Notes: generated from the letters alone by a model not told the origin. Positions 20,983 to 64,000 are shown, counted from the stretch's first letter. The stretch: DNA of 64,000 nucleotides from Myxococcota bacterium (GCA_022710975.1 JAKLGA010000009.1:245547-309546); one strand, 5' to 3'. A program made the numbers and translations.

Positions 20983-22260
20983 TCAGTAGACGCAGTTCGG
21001 CGGGGTGGCGGGCTCGGCGGCCCCGTTGGTGACCGCGCTGAGGTGACCGGCGCTGTCCCCGCTGGCGCAGAAGTAGTTCCCGCGGATGTCGCCCTCGTTG
21101 CCGCCGCAGGCGCTGATCCAGCACCGCTTGCCCCCCAGGGTGTCGCCGCAGTCCCCGCTGTCGCAGTCGCGGTCGCTGCCGCAGCCGCTGGCGCAGTCGA
21201 TGCCCCAGTCGTCGTCCGAGCTCCAGGCGCCCATGTCGTGCGGGTCGTTCGCGTCCCAGGCGCGGAAACAGCGCGGCTCGCCGCCGTCGTAGTAGCGCGC
21301 GTTGCGGGCCTTGCACTGGTCCTCGGCGCTCGCCGCCGGCAGGCAGGTGGCGTTCTCGGCGCGCGAGCAGCAGTAGGAGGCGCAGTCGAAGTTGTAGAGG
21401 CAGGCCTGACCGTCCTGGAAGTGCAGGCCGCAGGCGCCGTCCTGGCAGCCGAACACCGCGCCGCAGGCGTGCTCCCGCAGCACGGTCGGATCGAGCTGGC
21501 AGGTGCCGCCGGGCTCGCACTTGCCGTCCCAGGGGCAGTTGACCAGCAGGGTCGGGGAGTCCGCGGCGCAGCGCCGCTCCGGCAGCATGCCGTCCTGATC
21601 GGCCAGGGCGCAGTACAGGTCGCGGCCGACGGCGCCGGCGATCACCCAGCTGTAGGTGATCGGCTGCTGGAACCCCGCGGCCAGGCAGAGGTAGACCGTA
21701 CCGTTGCAGTCCCTGCGCTGGCAGGCGTGCGCGAAGTCGCACGGTCCCAGGCAGCAGAAGCCGTCGGCGCCCAGGTTCTGGCAGGTCTCGCCCGCGCCGT
21801 TGTCGCAGGGCAGGCAGGCCCAGCCGCAGTGGGTCGAGTCCTCGCAGGGCTTGCACTGGTCAGTGGCCTCGTCGCAGTACTGGCTGGGCAGGCAGCCGTC
21901 GGGGCAGGGCGCCCCGTCGGCGCCGTCGGGCTGCTCGTCGGCGCCGTCGGGCTGCTCGTCCGTGCCGTCGGGCTCCTCGTCAGCGCCGTCGGGCTGCTCG
22001 TCGGCGCCGTCGGGCTGCTCGTCCACGCCGTCCGGGCCCGCGTCCCCGTCGTCGGCCGCGTCGGCGTCGGTGCCGTCCGGGCCGCCGTCCGGAGGGGTCT
22101 CGTGTACGCATACGCCGCCGTTGCACACGTGACCCGAGGGGCACCCGCCGCCCGCCGCACAGCTCGTGCCCTCGTAGCTCGGGTGGTACACGCAGCCCGC
22201 CAAGGCCACGGCCAGGCCGGCGACCAGCAACCAGAGCGCGTTGATGCTTCGGTTCCTCAT
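20983..22260 (-). CDS. Cysteine-rich secreted lipoprotein with a 6x DEQPDGA tandem acidic repeat
   Basis: Internal Met MRNRSINALWLLVAGLAVALAGC (lipobox). About 50 Cys. DNA shows 21-bp tandem units at 21915-22045. Confidence 0.7.
   Translation of the reverse strand: MRNRSINALWLLVAGLAVALAGCVYHPSYEGTSCAAGGGCPSGHVCNGGVCVHETPPDGGPDGTDADAADDGDAGPDGVDEQPDGADEQPDGADEEPDGTDEQPDGADEQPDGADGAPCPDGCLPSQYCDEATDQCKPCEDSTHCGWACLPCDNGAGETCQNLGADGFCCLGPCDFAHACQRRDCNGTVYLCLAAGFQQPITYSWVIAGAVGRDLYCALADQDGMLPERRCAADSPTLLVNCPWDGKCEPGGTCQLDPTVLREHACGAVFGCQDGACGLHFQDGQACLYNFDCASYCCSRAENATCLPAASAEDQCKARNARYYDGGEPRCFRAWDANDPHDMGAWSSDDDWGIDCASGCGSDRDCDSGDCGDTLGGKRCWISACGGNEGDIRGNYFCASGDSAGHLSAVTNGAAEPATPPNCVY
21915..22045. 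repeat. 21-bp tandem repeat (about 6 copies, gccgtcgggctgctcgtcggc-like) inside the Cys-rich lipoprotein CDS
   Basis: Read directly in the sequence. Encodes PDGADEQ repeats on the minus strand. Confidence 0.8.
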
Positions 22261-22280: not shown

Positions 22281-23336
22281 TCAGAATCGGATCGCCGCCC
22301 CTCCGGGCGCGGCCTCCACCACCGGCGCGTCGTCGGCCCCGGGCTCGAGGATGAACAGGACGACCGCAGTGATCGCCGCGGCGCCCGCCACGCCGAACAG
22401 GATGTTGGCCGCCAGCGCCTGGTCGCGGCCGGAGCTGTCGGTGGAGGGATCCCACTGCTGCTCGACCGAGTCCTGCGCGTCCATGGAGGCCAGCCCGAGC
22501 CCCAGGCCGGCCCCGCCGGCCGCCAGGCCGATCCCCAGGCTGATCACCGAGCCGAGGTGGCGGCTGAAGAAGCCGGGCCGCTCGGGCGCCCCGGCCTGCA
22601 CCTCGGCGCCTGGCGCGGCGCCCTCGAGCCGCTCGACCTTGACGTTCCCGCCGTCCGCGATCCCGGGCCCGGGTCCCGGCTCGCGCGCGGGCTCGACGGC
22701 GGGCGCGGGCTCGGCCTTGGGGCCGGGCCGGGTCGGCGCGACCGGCTCGGGCCGGGTGGCCAGCCTGGGCGCGGGCGCGGCGCCCTCCTCGGCGATGGGC
22801 ACCGGCTCGACGTCCCCGTCGAACGTGGCCGCCACCCCGCTGGTCAGGCCGCCCATGAGCAGCTCCGAGACGCTGCCCTCGACCACCGAGTTGAGCTTGG
22901 CCGGGGGCTTGCGCTTGAGATCGATGGACTTCAGCACCAGGCGGTACCCGCTGGCGGTGCGCTGCAGCTCGGCGCCGATCATGCGGTCGGCCTTGAGCAG
23001 CCTGCCGATGGCCAGCAGGCAGGCGTCGCCGCCGTCGCAGCGATCGAGCTCGGGCTGGCCGGCCTCCTTGAGCTCGGTCTTGACCCGCGCGCGCGGGACC
23101 AGGCGGAAGTCGCGGCGCTTGTCGAAGTCCTTGAGCACCTGGGTCTCGACCGCGCGGGCGTCCTCGGCCTTGATGCCCGGACCGGCCGCGAACCAGACCA
23201 CCAGGCGGGGCGCCTTCTCGTCCACCAGCGGGACCACGCCGAAGTCGTCCAGGCCCGGGGCCTCCTGGGCGAGCCCGGTCCCCGCGGCCGCCAGGCAGGC
23301 CAGGCACAGGCTGGCCAGGATTCGCGCGCGCATCAC
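22281..23336 (-). CDS. Secreted/membrane-anchored hypothetical protein (signal peptide, Pro/Ala-rich linker, C-terminal TM)
   Basis: MMRARILASLCLACLAAAGTGLAQ signal. C-terminal hydrophobic helix. Abuts the Cys-rich lipoprotein gene. Confidence 0.6.
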   Translation of the reverse strand: MMRARILASLCLACLAAAGTGLAQEAPGLDDFGVVPLVDEKAPRLVVWFAAGPGIKAEDARAVETQVLKDFDKRRDFRLVPRARVKTELKEAGQPELDRCDGGDACLLAIGRLLKADRMIGAELQRTASGYRLVLKSIDLKRKPPAKLNSVVEGSVSELLMGGLTSGVAATFDGDVEPVPIAEEGAAPAPRLATRPEPVAPTRPGPKAEPAPAVEPAREPGPGPGIADGGNVKVERLEGAAPGAEVQAGAPERPGFFSRHLGSVISLGIGLAAGGAGLGLGLASMDAQDSVEQQWDPSTDSSGRDQALAANILFGVAGAAAITAVVLFILEPGADDAPVVEAAPGGAAIRF

Positions 23337-23447
23337 GGCATCCTCCCGTCCGGCCAGGCTGGATCGCTTGAAGGGACTGCGGGTTGCGCTGGCTGGACCA
23401 GAGGCAGTCTAGCACTCGGGATCGGGGGCATCAAGTGGGGGCGGACG

Positions 23448-23482
23448 CATGGGTCCACCCCTACGGGAACCCGGGCGCCCCC
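23448..23482. repeat. GC-rich stem-loop repeat, copy 1 (GGGGGCGGAC-GCATGG-GTCCACCCC + TACGGGAACC)
   Basis: Inverted repeat read in the sequence. Near-identical copy at 24831. Confidence 0.7.
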
Positions 23483-24046
23483 CCATCCCAGCCTCCACGA
23501 AGTAGCCCCCGCCCTGGGGGGTCCCCCACCGCGCTGCGCGCGTGGGGGAAGGGGTCGCGGCCGGCCGCGGCAGGGCCGCGGGCGGGCCGCGGGCCGCGGG
23601 CTGAGCCCGCGGCCACGATGCCCAGCTGGCGCTGGACTGCTGCGCGGCCCCCTTCGGGGACCGCTTCGCTGCCTCCGGCAAGCCCCCCTTCGGGGGGCTG
23701 GGTTGCCCGCGGATAGGTGCCAGTCGGCTGCATCAGGGGGGGATCGCCCTCCTGCCCTTCACCCCTCGTTGAAATGTCCTGGGCGATCCACACACGGCGG
23801 ATCAGCCAACGCCAGGCGGGCGGTGGGCGACTTCAGCGCGACCAGCTCCGGACCGGGTCGGCTTGCACCTGTGACCCGGCTCGCGGTACAGTCGCCACCA
23901 CCTCGGGCAAGGTGCGGGGGATCGAGGTGCTGGCGTACGAACCCGGCGATCGCACCCAGGCAGCGATCACCTTGAAGATCAGCGAGTAGGCGGACGGTCG
24001 ATCCGTCCGAACGATCCGAACCGTTCGACAAGGGGAGGGAAAGAGA

Positions 24047-24316
24047 ATGAAGACGGCGATCTTCGGTGTCATCATGCTGGTGCTCGGCGGTGTGGCCTAC
24101 CTGTTCCGGGTCGAGTTCGTCAGCCTGGGCATGAGCTCCAGGGAGAGCAACTTCGCGGGCATGGCCATCATGGCCGACGGGGACTACCGGCTGGCCTACG
24201 ACATCCTGACCTACGCCGGCATCGGGGTCGCGGCCCTCGGGCTGATCCTGCTGGTCGTCGGCATCCTCAAGCTCCTCAAGGCCAGAGCACCCGCTCCGCC
24301 CGCGGCGGCAGCCTGA
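24047..24316 (+). CDS. Small two-helix membrane protein (89 aa)
   Basis: Strong SD (GGGGAGGGAAAGAGAATG). Two hydrophobic helices. Sits alone in a repeat-rich non-coding pocket. Confidence 0.65.
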   Translation: MKTAIFGVIMLVLGGVAYLFRVEFVSLGMSSRESNFAGMAIMADGDYRLAYDILTYAGIGVAALGLILLVVGILKLLKARAPAPPAAAA

Positions 24317-24580
24317 CTCTCGCGGGCGCCAGGATCGACTCCACCCGCGCCACGCTTCCTGCCAAAGCCCCCACGCTTCCTGCCGCCCGCTAGGCGGATC
24401 CTCACGGGCGGTCTAACCTCCGCCACGGTTGCGCTGCGTATCCTCACAGGCGTGCCGCACATGCCCACGGGCGGAACAAGCTTCCATCCAGGAGGAACAC
24501 GTCTCTTCGAGGAAGAGGAAGGGAAGATGGACGGTCGGGGCTGGGTCCTCCCACCCGCGCGCGAGCTCGCTGGACAGGCG

Positions 24581-24766
24581 CCAGAAGTCGTCGGCTGGGC
24601 GCCACACATCGCTGCACGCACCCCAGAAGTCGCTGGCTGGGCGCCACACATCGCTGCACGCACCCCAGAGGTCGCCGGCTGGACGCCAGACATCGTTGCA
24701 CGCGCCCCAGAGGTCGTCGGCTGGACTCCAGACATCGCCGCACGCACGCCAGAAGTCGTGGGGACC
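24581..24766. repeat. 42-bp tandem direct repeat, about 4.4 copies (ccagaagtcgtcggctgggcgccacacatcgctgcacgcacc)
   Basis: Four full units with 3-6 substitutions each, then a partial fifth. No spacers, so not CRISPR. Coding status unresolved (14-aa PEVVGWAPHIAART repeats in one frame). Confidence 0.8.
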
Positions 24767-24784
24767 CAGGGCCGATTCTCTGTA

Positions 24785-24808
24785 GGGGCAGACCCACGTG
24801 TCTGCCCC
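24785..24808. repeat. GC-rich stem-loop repeat, copy 2 (GGGGCAGAC-CCACGT-GTCTGCCCC)
   Basis: Same stem architecture as the 23448 and 24831 copies. Confidence 0.6.
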
Positions 24809-24830
24809 AGACCTTGGTCGTCCGTGGTTC

Positions 24831-24863
24831 GGGGCGGACGCATGGGTCCGCCCCTACGGGACC
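24831..24863. repeat. GC-rich stem-loop repeat, copy 3 (GGGGCGGAC-GCATGG-GTCCGCCCC + TACGGGACC)
   Basis: Perfect 9-bp stem with the same loop and 3' tail as copy 1. Confidence 0.75.
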
Positions 24864-24890
24864 AGCGGTCCACAGCCGGGCCGCCGGCGG

Positions 24891-26300
24891 CTACTCCCTG
24901 GACTTGGGCATGGAGCCGGTGCGGGACGAGTAGACCGAGGCGCGGGCCGAGGCCAGGGTCTGGCCGGCCTGGCGGGCGAACAGGATGAGCATCTCGAACT
25001 CGCGCTCGGTGATGGTGCCGAGCTTCTCCGAGCGGTCGATGCCCAGCACCCCCAGCACCTTGTCGCGGTAGGTCATGGGCGCCAGCGCGAAGGGGTTCAG
25101 GCCGATCTTCTTGGCCAGCTCGCGGTTGATGCCCTCGAAGCTCAGCGGGTCGGTCACGTTGAAGGCCTGGTCGTCCAGGGCGCAGCGCGCGGTCAGGCCC
25201 TCCTCCCTGCGCAGCGGGATGTTCACCCGCATGGGCGTTCGCGCGCTCTCCGGGACCCGGCTGTGGTAGGCCACCCGCCGCAGCTTGAGCTCGCCGCCCT
25301 CGGCCACGTACATCAGGGCCCGGTCCAGCTCGAGGCCGGTGACCAGCACCTCGCAGATGCGGTCGACCACCTCCTCCAGGTTGCGGTGGTGCTGGAGCAC
25401 CTCGCTGACCTGGTAGAGCATGCGGAACAGGCCGGCCTGGCGCTCGAGCAGCAGGTTCGACTCCCGGAGCTGGCGGGCCTTCTTGTGCACCTGCCGGATC
25501 AGGAAGCCCGAGGCGCTGGCCACCGCGGCGAAGGCGAAGAAGTTCACCAGCATCATGAGGATGATGTAGCTGCCGCGGTGGGCGAAGTTGTCGAGCGCCA
25601 CGAAGTAGGACACGTGGGGCAGGACGCCGGTGACCACCAGCACCGCGATGGCCGAGTAGACGACGCCGGCCAGCGCCGCCATGGTCATGCCGGCCGCCGG
25701 CCCCACCAGGATGCTGCCGCCGATGATGGGCAGGAAGTACAGGAAGGAGAACGGGCTGGTCACGCCGCCGGTGCGCCACACGTAGGCGGAGAACACCAGC
25801 ACGTCGAGCGCGAGCTGGAGCCAGATGAACTTGCGCAGGTCCCAGCGCTGCCTGCGCAGCTCGAGGAAGTACAGGCCGTTGAGCAGGATGGAGATGACCG
25901 CCACCAGGCCGGTGGACAGCAGCGTCTCGCGCGACAGCGGGCTCGAGCCCCGGGTGATGCCCTGCCAGTTGGTCAGGAACATCAGCACGAACACCGACGG
26001 GTTGACCACGAAACGGACGCGGATGATCCAGGCGATCTTCTTGCGCATCTCCTCGCGCGTGTCGCTGAGATCGAAGTCGATCTCCAGCATCTTCTTGGGG
26101 AGCGCCATGGCCATGTCGCGGGTGCCGGCCAGCAGCACCTCGGTCACCGATTGGCCGCGCGGGCCCTCCGCGCTCGGGGGCGGCGGGGCGTAGCCCGGCG
26201 CGGGGGCGTCCGCCGTGGGGGGCGGGGCGTCCTGCGCGGGCGCTGGCGGGCTGGCGTCCACCGGGGGCGCCGGGCGCTCGGGCTGGGCTTCGTCGGACAT
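24891..26300 (-). CDS. Multi-pass membrane protein with C-terminal GAF-like sensor domain and Pro-rich N-terminus
   Basis: Six or more hydrophobic helices, then LEEVVDRICEVLVTGLELDRALMYVAEGGELKL... (GAF-like). Confidence 0.65.
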   Translation of the reverse strand: MSDEAQPERPAPPVDASPPAPAQDAPPPTADAPAPGYAPPPPSAEGPRGQSVTEVLLAGTRDMAMALPKKMLEIDFDLSDTREEMRKKIAWIIRVRFVVNPSVFVLMFLTNWQGITRGSSPLSRETLLSTGLVAVISILLNGLYFLELRRQRWDLRKFIWLQLALDVLVFSAYVWRTGGVTSPFSFLYFLPIIGGSILVGPAAGMTMAALAGVVYSAIAVLVVTGVLPHVSYFVALDNFAHRGSYIILMMLVNFFAFAAVASASGFLIRQVHKKARQLRESNLLLERQAGLFRMLYQVSEVLQHHRNLEEVVDRICEVLVTGLELDRALMYVAEGGELKLRRVAYHSRVPESARTPMRVNIPLRREEGLTARCALDDQAFNVTDPLSFEGINRELAKKIGLNPFALAPMTYRDKVLGVLGIDRSEKLGTITEREFEMLILFARQAGQTLASARASVYSSRTGSMPKSRE

Positions 26301-56896: not shown

Positions 56897-57025
56897 AGGT
56901 CAGCACCGTACCCGGCGAGGTGCCGCCAGGTCTTGCCTCCCATTTGACCTCTGTCAGTCGCTTGCTGCTCAGGCTGCGGGAGGTGGGGTCGCGATCGGAC
57001 GATTCGGAAGAGGGCGGCGTGAGAG

Positions 57026-59326
57026 CTATTCGATGGCGATGATGTACACCGCCCCAGAGTTGGTTCCAAGAGTATCCTGCGTGTAGTCCCCAACGATTGC
57101 AGTGCTCCCGCTGAGCGAAACTGAGTTTCCAAAGGAGTCGATCCCTTCGGTCACAGGTGAATCTACACGCAGGAGCAGGCTCCAGGTTGCGTCTGGATTG
57201 CGGCGGAAGAAGTGAACGTCGTTTTCGGTATGGCTACTTCCGACAGCTAGAGTGTCATTGAACAGGCTTACAGATAGGCCAAAACCATTCTGGGCTGGTG
57301 AGCTTGGTAATACCTTAGCCTCGTGCTCCCATGTGTTTGACCCCGTTCTCCTGAAGATGTAAACAGCTCCGGAACCGGTCGTTATGCCGTCCTTTCCTTG
57401 CGCTCCCATGGCGATCCAGTCGCCATAGATACTTGCCGCAAAGCCGAAATTGTCGTCGGCTGCAGCGTCGTAAGCCACGATCTCAGTGGCGTTACCCCAC
57501 GAATTTACGTCGGTACGTTGAAACACAAATGCCGTTCCAGCCCCTCCACTAGCGCCGACGACTGCGTAGTCTCCATCGACTGCAACTGAGGATCCAAAGC
57601 CTTGCCCGCCCGGCGCGGCGATGACCGTGCCAGCATCCCAAGTGTTTTCTCCAGTGCGATGATATATGTACGCTGTGTTGGCGTTCCGGGCTCCAACGAT
57701 GGCATAGTCACCACTGAGGCAGACAGCGGCTCCGAAGAAGGCGCCTCCCTGGAACCTTACTCCAGCATCCCAGGAATTGATGTCTGTTCTGTGAAAAATA
57801 TACGCTGAATTTTTCCGGTGTTCACCGACAATTGCATAGTCACCACTGATCGAGACGAACATGCCGAAATTCGAATTCACTTCAGGATTGTGGGAGTACA
57901 CCCTTGTCCCAGTGTCCCACATGTTCGGCCCAGTCCTGTGGATGATGTGCGCTGAGCCAGCATTCGAGTCCACACCATAGGAACCGATTATCGCATAGTC
58001 CCCATCAATTGCTACCCCCGTCCCAAAGTATCCATACTCTGAGGGCTCAGGTGAATAGAGCTCGGATATGTCAACACAGATGCTCTGATTGATGCACGAC
58101 TCTCCTTCACGGCAGCATGTTCCGTTGCAGACCACCCAGCCGCAGTTGCAGCTTCCACTGGCATCGCAGAGTTCGCCAGCCTCACATGTTCCGCAATCGA
58201 ACCCACCGCGCGGCGAAGGACCGCACAGCCTCCCGACGCAATCATCGAAGCATTGGCCATCAGCATCACACCATTCAGTTGCACCCGGACAAGTACCACA
58301 ACTGTATCCTGCGTTGGGAGATGGCCCACAGCTTCGACCGATGCAGTCATCCTCACATTGGCCAGCAGCAGTGCAGTATTCTGTCGCCCCGCCACATGTT
58401 CCACAGTTATGTCCATCGTTGGGCGACGGTCCACAAGTTCGGCCCAGGCAGTCGTCAACGCATTGACCAGCGCTTGTGCAATAATCCGTCACTCCTTGGC
58501 AACTCCCGCAATCAAGGCTCAAGTGAGGCGAAGGACCGCAGACTCTTCCAAGGCAATCGTCACCGCACTGGCCGCCATCGGAGCAATAGTCGTCTGCCAC
58601 TGAACATACCCCGCATGAAAGGCCAAGTGTAGGCGACAGCCCACAAATTCGCCCAACGCAGTCGTCAATGCAATGGCCCTCTGGATCGCAGTACTCTGTC
58701 TGGAGAGCACAGGAACCGCAGAAGAAGCCCGGACGGTTTGGGGATGCACCGCAGACCCTGCCAGCGCAGTCGTCCAGGCACTGCCCCGCGGCCGTGCAGT
58801 AGTCGTTCTCTCCGCTGCAGGTCCCGCAGGTGTGGCCGAGCGTCGGGGAGAGGCCGCACTCCAGGCCCGCGCAGTCATCCACGCAGGCCCCCTCCTCCGA
58901 GCAGTACTCATCCTCTCCCTCGCATCCGCCGCAGTCGAACCCCGCCACGGGCGAGGTCCCGCACCGGCCCAGACAGTCGTCGATGCACTGGTTTCCGGCA
59001 GGGACACAGTACTGGGTCGGGCCTGAACAGCTGCCGCAGAGCTTTCCGATGTTCGGCGACTGACCGCAGAACCGTCCAGCGCAGTCGTCGATGCATACCT
59101 TGGCTGGCGTGCAGTACAGGTCCCCATCACAGGTGCCATCGGAGTAGCAGGGCTCGCCGAGGTTTCCAGCCGCGAAGCATCGGTAGTCGACGCAGGCCAG
59201 GCCGCTGTTGCAGGTACCGTTGTCCCTGCACGGTTCGCCGGAGTGGCCGACCCCGTGGAGGCCGATGTCGCAGCCTGCGGCACCGGCCAGCAGCGAAGCC
59301 AGGATGACGAGCGTGGAGTTGCGCAT
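57026..59326 (-). CDS. Lipoprotein with ~9 tandem Cys-rich repeats (DDCxGRxCGxSPxxGxxCGxCxGxxxYCxxxGxC) and C-terminal FG-GAP-type beta-propeller repeats. Reduced GC.
   Basis: SD GGAGGTG before the Met at 59326. Lipobox LLAGAAGC. Repeated GDYAIVG...FG.SV...GDYA blades. Confidence 0.7.
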   Translation of the reverse strand: MRNSTLVILASLLAGAAGCDIGLHGVGHSGEPCRDNGTCNSGLACVDYRCFAAGNLGEPCYSDGTCDGDLYCTPAKVCIDDCAGRFCGQSPNIGKLCGSCSGPTQYCVPAGNQCIDDCLGRCGTSPVAGFDCGGCEGEDEYCSEEGACVDDCAGLECGLSPTLGHTCGTCSGENDYCTAAGQCLDDCAGRVCGASPNRPGFFCGSCALQTEYCDPEGHCIDDCVGRICGLSPTLGLSCGVCSVADDYCSDGGQCGDDCLGRVCGPSPHLSLDCGSCQGVTDYCTSAGQCVDDCLGRTCGPSPNDGHNCGTCGGATEYCTAAGQCEDDCIGRSCGPSPNAGYSCGTCPGATEWCDADGQCFDDCVGRLCGPSPRGGFDCGTCEAGELCDASGSCNCGWVVCNGTCCREGESCINQSICVDISELYSPEPSEYGYFGTGVAIDGDYAIIGSYGVDSNAGSAHIIHRTGPNMWDTGTRVYSHNPEVNSNFGMFVSISGDYAIVGEHRKNSAYIFHRTDINSWDAGVRFQGGAFFGAAVCLSGDYAIVGARNANTAYIYHRTGENTWDAGTVIAAPGGQGFGSSVAVDGDYAVVGASGGAGTAFVFQRTDVNSWGNATEIVAYDAAADDNFGFAASIYGDWIAMGAQGKDGITTGSGAVYIFRRTGSNTWEHEAKVLPSSPAQNGFGLSVSLFNDTLAVGSSHTENDVHFFRRNPDATWSLLLRVDSPVTEGIDSFGNSVSLSGSTAIVGDYTQDTLGTNSGAVYIIAIE

Positions 59327-59327
59327 C

Positions 59328-61016
59328 TTACCACCTCCCCCCAAAGGAGAAGGTCGCTCCACCGTCGGTGGGGACGATGGAGAGCGCTTCCGGGTGGTCC
59401 TTGAACCACTCCCTGTCCTCTGGCGCCATGAACCACAGGACGGCGCCGGCCACGAGCAGGGCGAAGCCGGTGCCGAAGCTCGCGTACATGACGCCCGCCC
59501 AGGTCCGGCTCTTCCCGGCGGCGTCCGGGTCTCCTGCCTTGTCGTCATCCCCGTACGTGTAGGTGAGGCCGGTCGCGGCCGCTCCGAGCACCGACAACCC
59601 CACGCCCGACCAGAAGAGCCCGTGAGCCCACCTGGCCATCGGGTTCATGGGGTAGATCCGGGCCAGGGACAGGGCGACCACGGCTTCTTGCCCCGCCTGG
59701 AGATCGACCTCCTGGACCACTCCCACGTGGCCCTCCAGCGTGGCCTCGATCCGGTACTTCCCCGCAGGGAGATCCCTCCTCAGGGGGGCGGAGGCGCCCG
59801 GCTCCTGGCCGATGGCGACGAGCGCACCGGGCGGATCCGTCTCGACGACGAGGCTCGCCGGCGGAATCGTCCGCAAGGCCACCTTCAATTCGGTTCGCAT
59901 CCCGTTGGCGATCACGAACTCCCGCCTCTCGGGCAGGTACCCCTCCATCTCGATGACCGCGAAGTACGAACCAGCCTCCAGGTTGTTGGCCGCAAAGGGG
60001 GCCTCAGCCTCGGCCAGGGTCTGCCCTTCCGAGTTCTCCAGCGACACATTGGCCCCCCTGGGCTCCGAGGTGACCCACAAGACACCGGGCTGGGTGTTCC
60101 TCAGGGTGATCTTCAGGGTGGTGTCCTTGTTGGATTCCACGGTCACCTGGTACTGGTTGGCGGCGAAGCCCTCGAGCTCCGCGGTCACCTTGTAGGTGCC
60201 CTCGCGCAGCGCGACCAGGATGGGCGAAGGCCCCAGCTTGTTGTAGCCGCTGATCAGCACAGAGGCGCCAGCCGGCTCCGTCGTGACCGTGAGCCGTCCC
60301 GGAACGATCTCCCGCAGCAGCCTCTGCCCCTCTGCCTCGTAGGGATTGTCGCCGGCGTACGCGGAGAGGAAATGATGGAGCAAGCGCACTCTCGTTTCCA
60401 GCTGGACGGACTCATCCTTCGCCAGAGAGTAGAGGTACGACCAGTTGCTCCTTATCTCTTCCTGCAGCTCCTTGGCATTCCTGGTGTCCTTGAGTAGCTC
60501 CTCGAACTCGAGCACCGCCTGTGTGGAGCCCGCTTCCCTGGCTTTCGCGGGCTGGCAGAGCTTCGCGGCGATCGTCCTGATGGCCGCCAGCAGTGATTCC
60601 TCCTTGCAGGTGGAATCACCCGTCGCGGCGCCCTCCGTGGCGGCTTTCTTCAGATCATAGAGTGTCGCGGTCACCTGGCAGGTGTTGCCGATCTTCAGGA
60701 TCTGGGAGGAGAGGGTCTTCTGCGCGGCCAGCTCCCCGCCGAGCTCGATCTGGCAGCTCGCGTCGTAGCAGGCCTTGTAGCTGTCCTTCTTCTGCTGGAC
60801 CAGCCTCTCCTTGATCTGTTCGCGGGGAACCAGGCCGAATCCGCACTCGGCCAGGCTGGCCGAGAGAAACTCCGTCAGGTTCTGCCGGGTCTTCGGGTCG
60901 AGCCCCGAGCCGCGGTCCTCCATGTCGAACACGGCCACGAGGGGCAGGTTCTGCCCCTGGGCCACGCTGGGCCATACGGGAAGGCCAATGACCGCCAGCA
61001 AGACTAGCCGCCTCAT
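59328..61016 (-). CDS. Secreted protein with three PEGA domains and a C-terminal TM segment
   Basis: Internal Met MRRLVLLAVIGLPVWPSVAQG. PEGA-like TTEPAGASVLISG...YKVTAELEGF (x3). Confidence 0.65.
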   Translation of the reverse strand: MRRLVLLAVIGLPVWPSVAQGQNLPLVAVFDMEDRGSGLDPKTRQNLTEFLSASLAECGFGLVPREQIKERLVQQKKDSYKACYDASCQIELGGELAAQKTLSSQILKIGNTCQVTATLYDLKKAATEGAATGDSTCKEESLLAAIRTIAAKLCQPAKAREAGSTQAVLEFEELLKDTRNAKELQEEIRSNWSYLYSLAKDESVQLETRVRLLHHFLSAYAGDNPYEAEGQRLLREIVPGRLTVTTEPAGASVLISGYNKLGPSPILVALREGTYKVTAELEGFAANQYQVTVESNKDTTLKITLRNTQPGVLWVTSEPRGANVSLENSEGQTLAEAEAPFAANNLEAGSYFAVIEMEGYLPERREFVIANGMRTELKVALRTIPPASLVVETDPPGALVAIGQEPGASAPLRRDLPAGKYRIEATLEGHVGVVQEVDLQAGQEAVVALSLARIYPMNPMARWAHGLFWSGVGLSVLGAAATGLTYTYGDDDKAGDPDAAGKSRTWAGVMYASFGTGFALLVAGAVLWFMAPEDREWFKDHPEALSIVPTDGGATFSFGGRW

Positions 61017-62752: not shown

Positions 62753-63005
62753 GTCACCTCCTCGTGGATCGTCGCGGAAGGGTCTCCTCCGAGCGTAGTG
62801 CCCGACCCGCCTCGGCTTCTACAGCCGATAGTCATCATGGGCGGGACCAGACTTCTGCCCGACTGGAAGGGAGGACGACCATGGGCGTGGGAATCTGACC
62901 GGTTGGGCAGAGAAAACGGCGTGCGAGTGTGCTAGAATTCCACTTCGTTGGTGCTCTGGCGAGGAACCGACGCTGAAGCCGTGGCGCAAGAGGGAGGTGG
63001 ATTCC

Positions 63006-64000
63006 ATGGGTCTCGAGGAAGAACTCGAGCGAAATCAAGCTGCACTGGAGGAGATTATTGAGATCACTTGTGAGAGACCCGATTCGATCATCCTGTTCCT
63101 ACCTGTAGATTCTGGTGAACGGTTGGCTGAAGCAGAAAAGGCGAGGCTTGCTTTCCCAAAGCTGTTCGGACTTGAGCCGAAGTTATGTTCCGCTGAAAAC
63201 GCTTTGTTGTCTGCTAGCACGAGGGATGCGAAATCTGAAGCGAACCCTCTGCGACATTGTGTATTCGGTATAAAGCGGATGTCTATCGGAAGCCTCACCC
63301 AACAGATCGATCGGCTGCCGAGGTCACTATCCATCTATTGCGATGCAAATTGGTTGTCGGGGTCGATGGCTTTTAGGGCATTCCTGTTGAAACACTACTA
63401 CATTCGATGGTTGGTTTGGATTGATAACGAGAGAGTGACTTGCTCTATTCCTGCCGTGATTTCTAGATTAGTTCTTATTCGCGCCATTGCGAAGGGTAGT
63501 TCGACTCCGCCATTGCTTCGGGTGGCTTCGATTATGGGTAACGATCTTACAGCCTCAGTTGATAGGATTAGAGAGTGCCGAAGGATGAAATCAGTCGGTG
63601 ACTATGGACGGACGATTATCATAGCATCTAGTGAATCGCTACTTCCGGGTATGCCTTGGTTCTTTGGCAGCTTTCAAAAAGACCACTTTGAAAATCTCGG
63701 GGCCTTTAGCGAGCTGATCAAGATTGGAGAGGCGGTGCACCTTCGTGATGTAGCTGCCCTTCTCCGCCCAATCGCAAAGGGTGCTTTCGGAAAAGATGAT
63801 ATTGATGAAGACGAGTCGACACCTGGGGATAAAGGTGTCCCATGCTACTGTGGCTCTGATGTTTGCGCGGACGGAACGCTAAGGAATCCTAGCCGCTATG
63901 TTCCTAGGGATTCTGTTGACAAGGACAACCTTCTTCTTGAAGGAGATATTCTGGTTCCTTCGGTTTACTCGGGAACACTGCTGCCAACCGCAAGGATCAG
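63006..64000 (+). CDS. Partial ORF of unknown function in a low-GC segment (>331 codons, no stop before window end)
   Basis: SD GGAGGTG before ATG at 63006. Open frame to 64000. Visual GC about 47% vs about 70% elsewhere. Not in the ORF track because it has no stop. Confidence 0.5.
   Translation, partial: MGLEEELERNQAALEEIIEITCERPDSIILFLPVDSGERLAEAEKARLAFPKLFGLEPKLCSAENALLSASTRDAKSEANPLRHCVFGIKRMSIGSLTQQIDRLPRSLSIYCDANWLSGSMAFRAFLLKHYYIRWLVWIDNERVTCSIPAVISRLVLIRAIAKGSSTPPLLRVASIMGNDLTASVDRIRECRRMKSVGDYGRTIIIASSESLLPGMPWFFGSFQKDHFENLGAFSELIKIGEAVHLRDVAALLRPIAKGAFGKDDIDEDESTPGDKGVPCYCGSDVCADGTLRNPSRYVPRDSVDKDNLLLEGDILVPSVYSGTLLPTARI

Follow-up and report, generated by a model that had tools for sequence, protein, structure and literature searches.

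Probable GTAG-tagged REP hairpins in a gene-poor, lineage-specific insertion of a Myxococcota bacterium

Genes and features of the locus

The window, the whole 64,000-nt stretch of DNA that was analysed, comes from a metagenome-assembled genome of a Myxococcota bacterium and has a GC content of 71%. A gene-poor pocket lies in it between two genes of the minus strand, one encoding a 6TM-PilS/GAF-domain protein (hereafter the GAF gene) and the other a 351-aa protein. The pocket holds three GC-rich hairpins, a small gene and several repeat modules. The features are given below by their positions in the window.

22281–23336, minus strand: flanking gene for the 351-aa protein, which directly follows the GAF gene in relatives
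23406–23434, minus strand: promoter-like TTGATG-17 nt-TAGACT of the downstream 351-aa gene, read from the sequence, beginning 3 nt after REP copy 1
23416–24874, no strand: lineage-specific insertion of ~1441 nt, with ends placed to +/-18 nt (23416–24856 and 23434–24874 fit equally)
23438–23464, minus strand: REP copy 1, a singleton, GTAGGGGTGGACCCATGCGTCCGCCCC, with a 9-bp stem containing one G.T wobble and a 6-nt loop
23592–23816, plus strand: composite non-coding repeat module, colinear with positions 2138–2319 of contig L132
24047–24316, plus strand: orphan gene encoding a protein of 89 aa that has two hydrophobic segments, third-position GC ~1.0, GGAGG ribosome-binding site 9 nt upstream
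24581–24759, no strand: 42-bp tandem array of 4.3 copies with 89% matches, without coding-frame signal in third-position GC
24782–24857, no strand: REPIN, a head-to-head dimer of REP copies 2 and 3 with the GTAG termini outside and a 22-nt spacer
24782–24808, plus strand: REP copy 2, the left arm of the doublet, GTAGGGGCAGACCCACGTGTCTGCCCC
24831–24857, minus strand: REP copy 3, the right arm of the doublet, GTAGGGGCGGACCCATGCGTCCGCCCC
24891–26300, minus strand: flanking GAF gene, the synteny anchor

Both flanking genes, like the 89-aa ORF, have a third-position GC (GC3) of 0.95–1.0. No GC3 frame signal is found in 23340–24046 or 24317–24890, so the pocket is non-coding apart from this small gene. 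Gene callers applied to full-length contigs of the same organism revealed nothing else convincing in the pocket. A sequence-only reading made earlier had described a lone small membrane-protein gene with no other long ORF, and the GC3 signal, which within the pocket is present in 24047–24316 alone, agrees with this description. On the basis of its GC3 and its GGAGG site, the 89-aa gene looks real. Its product matches no Pfam family above the cut-off and has one other homologue cluster, a distant one, among 5.8 billion.

Other candidate features were rejected. For the 42-bp array, an ORF of 14-aa repeats starting at 24527 shows neither a GC3 signal nor a Pfam family, and the same is true of its alternative frame. 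The 71-aa ORF that is called in some contigs (23774–23989) overlaps a ~70-nt repeat, motif A, whose copies in L132 stop at the third codon. By inspection, the pocket does not resemble an integron attC cassette, with no integrase nearby and ends of GTAG/CTAC rather than the GTTRRRY core. A scan for tRNA and tmRNA found nothing real.

The composite module at 23592–23816 is built, in this order, of a GGCCGCGGGC-tga-GCCCGCGGCC hairpin, CCACGATGCCC, GCAAGCCCCCCTTCGGGGGG and motif A. The further short hairpins proposed in the sequence-only reading are present: two CCCCTTCGGGG hairpins, CCCC(C)TTCGGGG, lie at about 23649 and 23684, and CGGACGG-tcgat-CCGTCCG lies at about 23992. The 42-bp array, also proposed there, was recovered as a tandem repeat at the position and copy number listed above.

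Three hairpins of one design

We searched the window with the hairpin pattern GTAGGGGCRGAC-N6-GTCYGCCCC, allowing up to 3 mismatches. Six strand-matches were obtained, corresponding to three hairpins, all at the pocket and none elsewhere in the 64-kb window. The expected number is 0.03, and six matches were reached in 0 of 100 dinucleotide-preserving shuffles. The earlier claim of three hairpins sharing one stem design is therefore confirmed. All three copies were located, with a correction to the first, which had been placed at 23448–23482, about 10 nt too far to the right of its true position (23438–23464).

On the correct strand, each copy consists of GTAG and GGGGYRGAC-N6-GTCYGCCCC, which is a canonical GTAG-tagged REP. 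The GTAG directly abuts the stem in 3/3 copies, as the unpaired 5' GT[AG]G of such REPs does. A 9-bp stem with a 6-nt loop is likewise found in 3/3 copies, in keeping with a short palindrome of 20–40 bp. All three copies are extragenic, lying in DNA without a GC3 frame signal and uncalled by the gene callers.

Copies 1 and 3 have 31 nt in common at 97% identity, or 33 of 34 nt when a 1-nt indel is allowed, which bears out the loop and tail that they had been said to share. The shared 5' flank or tail is GGTTCCC in copy 1, reaching 23471, and GGTCCC in copy 3, reaching 24863. The single stem change of copy 1 appears as a C.A mismatch on the plus strand and as a G.T wobble on the GTAG (minus) strand. 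Copies 1 and 3 (REP1 and REP3) are both on the minus strand and thus in direct orientation, forming a 33-nt direct repeat of a REP plus its flank.

Copies 2 and 3, on the other hand, face each other. The arms of this doublet are 32 nt long and 81% complementary, with a 12-nt gap between them, equivalent to the 22-nt spacer between the REPs. As DNA, the 91-nt doublet region is predicted to fold into one long hairpin on either strand (z -4.7 and -5.0), and copy 2 by itself has a DNA fold of -10.6 kcal/mol (z -3.8). The minus strand of the doublet also gives a stable fold as RNA (z -4.8). Two inverted REPs, separated by a short spacer and folding into one long hairpin, constitute a REPIN. On the minus strand, the stop codon of the GAF gene precedes the doublet by 34 nt. 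Within the doublet, at 24824–24831, three short-read contigs break off, which hints at a repeat or at hairpin-induced breaks and carries no evidence on copy number.

A generic scan for GTAG-headed hairpins revealed no further copy of this REP design in the 64-kb window. Meanwhile, a search with up to 4 mismatches gave no more copies in the window, in ~9 kb beyond it or in 36 kb of relatives. Within the ~73 kb of host DNA read, the REP motif is thus confined to this one locus, with 3 copies inside 1.4 kb. Three copies at one locus in ~73 kb do not show a dispersed REP family in this host.

We also looked for RNA features. A terminator scan of 23200–25000 found 0 terminator-like sites, and no T/U tract, as an intrinsic terminator would have, follows the hairpins. 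A search of the whole window at Rfam gathering scores gave zero matches. An E-value search of the pocket against Rfam gave only sub-threshold, microRNA-shaped matches on the doublet, which arise because the doublet forms a long hairpin.

An insertion specific to the lineage

Contigs from many metagenomes of the anaerobic-digester type, for example JGI 3300009838, encode the 89-aa protein and the GAF protein without any change of sequence. NCBI labels both proteins Myxococcota bacterium, and the identical small protein there has the locus tag PK668_18620, on a 319-kb contig. The pocket is 99.8–100% identical across the metagenome contigs. Three relatives (L137, L139 and L141) carry orthologues of the GAF protein that are 87%, 76% and 64% identical, in fully syntenic neighbourhoods. 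The gap between the GAF gene and the 351-aa gene is 115, 79 and 42 nt in these relatives, versus 1554 nt here. A conserved gene covering the region in relatives would have spoken against the sequence-only reading; their 42–115 nt spacers hold no gene. No REP of this design is found in the 36 kb of the three relatives, including the orthologous spacer. As the spacer is short in all three, the pocket is an insertion of ~1441 nt (~1.44 kb) specific to the lineage of the window.

The insertion separates the GAF stop codon from the -35 box of the following gene. A promoter-like TTGNNN-17-TAGACT is kept beside the 351-aa gene in L137 and L139, with the form TTGAAG-17-TAGACT in L137. The TTGATG-17-TAGACT site of the window was not detected by a scan with a strict promoter consensus.

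Split alignment places the ends of the insertion anywhere from 24857/23415 to 24875/23434 with nearly equal score. This 18-nt ambiguity arises because ~18 nt on each side resemble a single ancestral segment, and consequently no cleavage site can be assigned. In every junction placement, a REP lies within about 0–22 nt of each end: REP3 is within ~17 nt and REP1 ~3–22 nt from the inferred ends, on the same strand. In one of the allowed junctions, the target reads ...GGCT/TGATG (the slash marks the junction) and the element ends in ...CCCCCACT, which puts a CT at both cleavage positions. Such a CT/CT junction fits the known cleavage specificity, yet it is not significant given the 18-nt ambiguity.

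Distribution of the motif and its linkage to RayT genes

In a scan with one genome per species, the REP motif was found in at least 120 genome stretches from many phyla, including Acidobacteriota, Chloroflexota, Planctomycetota, Cyanobacteria, Firmicutes, Bacteroidota, Deinococcota, Verrucomicrobiota, Gammaproteobacteria and others. Uniqueness of the motif to this locus would have spoken against a repeat family. The motif is single-locus within ~73 kb of the host, but it recurs widely in other genomes. Among the matches listed, the exact ones (n=158) prefer the loop CYNYGT, and many have a CTAC at the far side ("double foot"); such GTAG...CTAC variants account for 16 of the 203 units among the matches listed. 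The dimers among the matches listed comprise 34 with GTAG outside, versus 6 with GTAG inside and 6 in tandem, and their spacers have a mode of 20–25 nt, as in the window.

Among the matches listed, which are a random draw, 12 of 120 have a Y1 transposase ORF (HuH and Y motifs) with a REP inside it or flanking it at no more than ~210 nt, and at four loci the Y1 gene is flanked by REPs within ~210 nt. The Y1 ORFs score above the Pfam Y1_Tnp gathering cut-off. Their best NCBIfam model is REP_Tyr_transpos (REP-associated tyrosine transposase), at 59–78 bits, which is below its 80-bit equivalog cut-off. A profile built from six of the Y1 proteins matched more than 8000 clusters, many of them named 'REP element-mobilizing transposase RayT' by JGI; none of these matches could be assigned to the host. 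At the level of the family, the REP design is thus associated with RayT genes.

A REP within or beside a Y1/RayT gene is the published hallmark of TnpA-REP subclass 2.4. [quoted passage not shown] The type-A proteins found here match the description of subclass 2.4 given by Quentin et al. 2018. The closest counterparts of the REPs in the window are the 'long canonical' REPs of subclass 2.4 (RAYT group 4). Together, the GTAG foot, the inverted doublet, the spread of the motif across phyla and its linkage to RayT/Y1 genes uphold the REP-like interpretation offered by the sequence-only reading.

We notice that the RayT genes in three loci (L067, L081 and L119) are flanked by REPs of the same orientation. 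REPs in the same orientation also bracket ordinary genes, for example one in L052 that looks SodA-like and one in L111 that looks pilin-like, as judged by eye from their translations. Bracketing alone is therefore weak evidence for a mobile unit or a cargo transposon.

A contig that shares the modules of the pocket

A metagenome scan for the exact variant of copy 3 returned 5 stretches; the collection is without the host's own contig, which makes it uninformative on the copy number in the host. Contig L132 (Ga0209507_1000295; 67% GC) has a version of the 79-nt doublet that is 97.5% identical, agrees at 20 of the 22 spacer positions and lies between unrelated flanks. The presence of the doublet at this non-orthologous site, and its absence from the spacer of L137, L139 and L141, indicate that the REPIN is mobile.

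The 13.4-kb stretch of L132, a contig of 60 kb in full, also contains at least 6 copies of the ~70-nt motif A, which is single-copy in the window. A GGCCGCGG hairpin followed by CCACGATGCCC is found in L132 as well, together with GCAAGCCCCCCTTCGGGGG, in the same order as at 23592–23816 of the window. No other copy of the non-coding modules of the pocket was found in the window, in ~9 kb beyond it or in the 36 kb of relatives, and comparison of the pocket with plasmid and phage collections gave zero matches.

All the non-coding modules (the REPIN, the REP with its flank, the GC hairpins and motif A) recur in L132, and none has a further copy in the ~73 kb read from the host or the 36 kb read from relatives. 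Among the loci compared, L132 alone shares the modules other than the REPs. For this reason, we infer that the pocket is imported DNA in the Myxococcota lineage, most likely delivered in a single block by a genome rich in repeats and similar to that of L132. On the sequences compared, the simplest reading would be that such a genome supplied the block, and not that several repeat families were active in the host.

Comparison with known systems

GTAG-tagged REPs have been defined as a class, in which head-to-head dimers with GTAG outside are predominant (Di Nocera 2013, PMC3733652). Their dimer spacers are mostly 20–100 bp and are conserved in the GTAG-outside dimers, and the elements favour sites downstream of genes and are associated with RayT genes (PMC3733652). 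REP clusters are also described in which singletons and dimers repeat together with pieces of flanking DNA (PMC3733652). The hairpins of the window share with GTAG-tagged REPs (Nunvar 2010, PMC2817692; PMC3733652) the 27-nt unit, in which GTAG directly adjoins a GC-rich stem of 9 bp with a short loop, the tolerance of a G.T wobble on the GTAG strand, and an extragenic position just downstream of a gene. The head-to-head dimer with a conserved spacer of 20–25 nt is also alike, and it matches the dimer types of the scanned loci. They differ in that the stem GGGGCRGAC is not assigned here to a named family from GTAG-1 to GTAG-24, and in the number of copies, 3 in ~73 kb here versus <20 to thousands in published families.

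The inverted REP doublet with its long hairpin also resembles the REPIN-RAYT system (Bertels & Rainey 2011, PMC3116915; PMC6006769), and double-foot variants of this kind occur in the scanned loci. In contrast to that system, the host shows no RayT gene in the 64-kb window plus ~9 kb. Remnants of RayT were sought by regular expressions and by phmmer with three RayT queries, and none was found in the pocket, elsewhere in the window or in the ~9 kb beyond it (L143/L144). A Myxococcota host would be another scattered case of subclass 2.4.

Transposase-less derivatives of IS200/IS605 exist as PATEs or MITE-like derivatives. The pocket resembles IS200/IS605 elements and these derivatives in having same-strand, sub-terminal hairpins near both ends, an intergenic insertion, and a tetranucleotide 5' of each hairpin at the position of the guide sequence. 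It differs from them in lacking a transposase, a second copy and a defined target or cleavage site. Moreover, the left-end hairpin here sits in an inverted doublet, whereas the ends of IS200/IS605 do not. When acting on single-stranded REPs, the characterised TnpA-REP proteins cleave at a CT (or CA) dinucleotide to each side of the hairpin (Corneloup 2021, PMC8266576), and GTAG acts like the guide sequence of IS200/IS605 (PMC8266576).

Like E. coli BIMEs, the locus has clustered REPs that alternate in orientation where a transcription unit ends (3'), and these might stabilise the mRNA. Unlike them, it has another sequence, and the cluster spans 1.4 kb, enclosing a gene and unrelated repeat modules.

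Proposed origin and alternative explanations

We consider it probable that the three hairpins are GTAG-tagged REPs of the type used as single-stranded DNA substrates by RayT (TnpA-REP) enzymes of the Y1/HUH kind, that copies 2 and 3 form a REPIN, and that the pocket is an imported insertion. The element class is known already, and this is a new host instance of it. It is usually as a REPIN, with two inverted REPs folded into one long hairpin, that such elements move. A Y1 enzyme of the RayT type would recognise GTAG and the hairpin on single-stranded DNA and mobilise the doublet. The pocket would have landed downstream of the GAF stop codon and ahead of the -35 box in the promoter of the next gene, carrying one expressed-looking orphan small gene. 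The REP-containing 33-nt direct repeats at both ends suggest that the junctions were made by single-strand cleavage and joining of the RayT type at the REPs, or by REP-REP recombination. The GAF transcript would now contain the doublet in its 3' untranslated region, where it may have been co-opted secondarily as a stable hairpin at the 3' end, a role known for REPs elsewhere.

Two other histories would also involve mobile REPs. The pocket might have been assembled step by step, in the manner of BIMEs, with the spacer after the GAF gene as a landing pad on which the REPIN, the REP singleton, the GC hairpins, motif A, the array and the gene were gathered independently. REP clusters in which singletons and dimers are reiterated with flanking DNA are described (PMC3733652), REPs favour positions just downstream of genes, and the modules are separate repeat families in L132. 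However, repeated hits on one spacer would be surprising when neither ~73 kb of the host genome nor 36 kb from relatives holds another copy of the module families, and no intermediate states are seen, though the nearest relative has already diverged by 13% in the GAF protein. We regard this accretion as possible but doubtful. The whole 1.44-kb pocket could instead be a non-autonomous, REP-bounded transposon of the IS200/IS605 kind, with REP3 as its left end and REP1 as its right end. RayT supplied in trans would cut at the flanking CTs, and a single-stranded circle would move with the small gene and the other repeat modules as cargo. The direct orientation of REP1 and REP3, with 33 nt in common including the 5' flank, the lack of the pocket in relatives and the RayT genes that have same-orientation REPs on both sides are consistent with such a unit, as is the equally good junction with CT at both cleavage positions, which agrees with the CT specificity (PMC8266576). 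On the other hand, no second copy of the whole unit is found in the loci or in the plasmid and phage collections, only one homologue of the cargo gene was found and it is distant, the placement of the junction varies by 18 nt, CT dinucleotides are common, and REP-flanked single genes also arise through independent intergenic insertions. A cargo transposon is therefore unlikely in our assessment.

Outside mobile DNA altogether, the hairpins might be regulatory elements of the host, such as terminators or attenuators, or they might mark the structured RNA locus that the sequence-only reading had named beside the repeat family. The doublet follows the stop codon by 34 nt and has a very stable RNA fold, and copy 1 lies just upstream of the promoter-like site. 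Yet there is neither a T/U tract nor a terminator-like site, and the structured-RNA proposal found no Rfam family beyond the sub-threshold, microRNA-shaped matches. The identical 27-mer design occurs in unrelated phyla and inside RayT genes, and the relatives run the same two genes without any hairpins. We judge a purely regulatory or RNA origin highly improbable and keep to GTAG-tagged REPs within an imported insertion.

Implications

The hairpins belong to a repeat class already described and are ordinary for it; what is gained is mainly an explanation for a gene-poor pocket that looked odd. At the level of the family, one 27-nt REP design recurs with hardly any change in phyla far removed from one another and is linked to RayT of subclass 2.4, which indicates how far this system has spread. 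For the organism, the locus provides a dated before-and-after pair: an empty site in three relatives and a REP-ended 1.44-kb insertion with an orphan gene. Together with the full genome of the host and its RayT, this pair could be used to test whether REP/RayT systems ever move cargo besides themselves. If the cargo reading were true, REP/RAYT biology would extend from REPINs of ~80 nt to gene capture on the kilobase scale.

A conserved non-coding motif in the pocket

We identify a conserved non-coding stretch of approximately 70 nt with the core AATGYCCTGRGCGATYCACRCACG...GCCAACGCC, referred to as motif A. A single copy is present in the window, while the unrelated metagenome contig L132 carries at least six within 13.4 kb, including the one case of an inverted pair.

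Copies of motif A
Window 23741-23816
L132 2070-2131, plus strand
L132 2249-2319, plus strand
L132 7509-7584, plus strand
L132 3782-3828, minus strand
L132 7447-7497, minus strand
L132 9515-9545

Motif A has no match in Rfam, and its consensus fold is weak. In two cases, a gene starts approximately 190-230 nt downstream. Motif A could represent a MITE-like repeat, or else serve as a regulatory module.

Direct repeats and assembly breaks

Between the 89-aa small gene and the 42-bp tandem array, we notice more short direct repeats (24350-24474). Here CCACGCTTCCTGCC occurs twice, 21 nt apart, and there are three (G)ATCCTCACGGGCGG-like units, spaced by 42 and 21 nt, which suggests decayed copies of the array upstream of it.

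In three independent short-read assemblies of one and the same organism (L125, L126 and L130), the contig ends fall at window positions 24824-24831, inside the spacer of the REP doublet. For two further contigs, L127 and L128, the break points are 24622, within the 42-bp array, and 23527 and 23588, within the GC-rich hairpin region. Assembly failure caused by repeats or hairpins could account for all these breaks in the pocket.

Coding repeats and the right end of the window

The 425-aa gene that follows the flanking 351-aa gene downstream in the operon contains a protein-coding tandem repeat, about eight copies of the heptapeptide PDGADEQ (approximately 21700-22130). Further stretches of note lie in other loci, and the one in L107 shows a long, in-frame tandem expansion.

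Stretches in other loci
L017 261-830
L034 3646-4266
L046 2092-2736
L077 102-788
L085 288-1037
L045 1212-1970
L107 2589-3293 (tandem expansion)

At the right end, the GC content is 0.49-0.60 in window 57000-61000 and 63000-64000 and in positions 1-8400 of L144, the host sequence beyond the window, versus 0.71. After these segments come genes whose products have nSTAND/ATPase_2, HATPase_c_3 and DEAD/Helicase_C domains. Together with the adjoining genes, the low-GC segments look like a horizontally acquired defence-type island.
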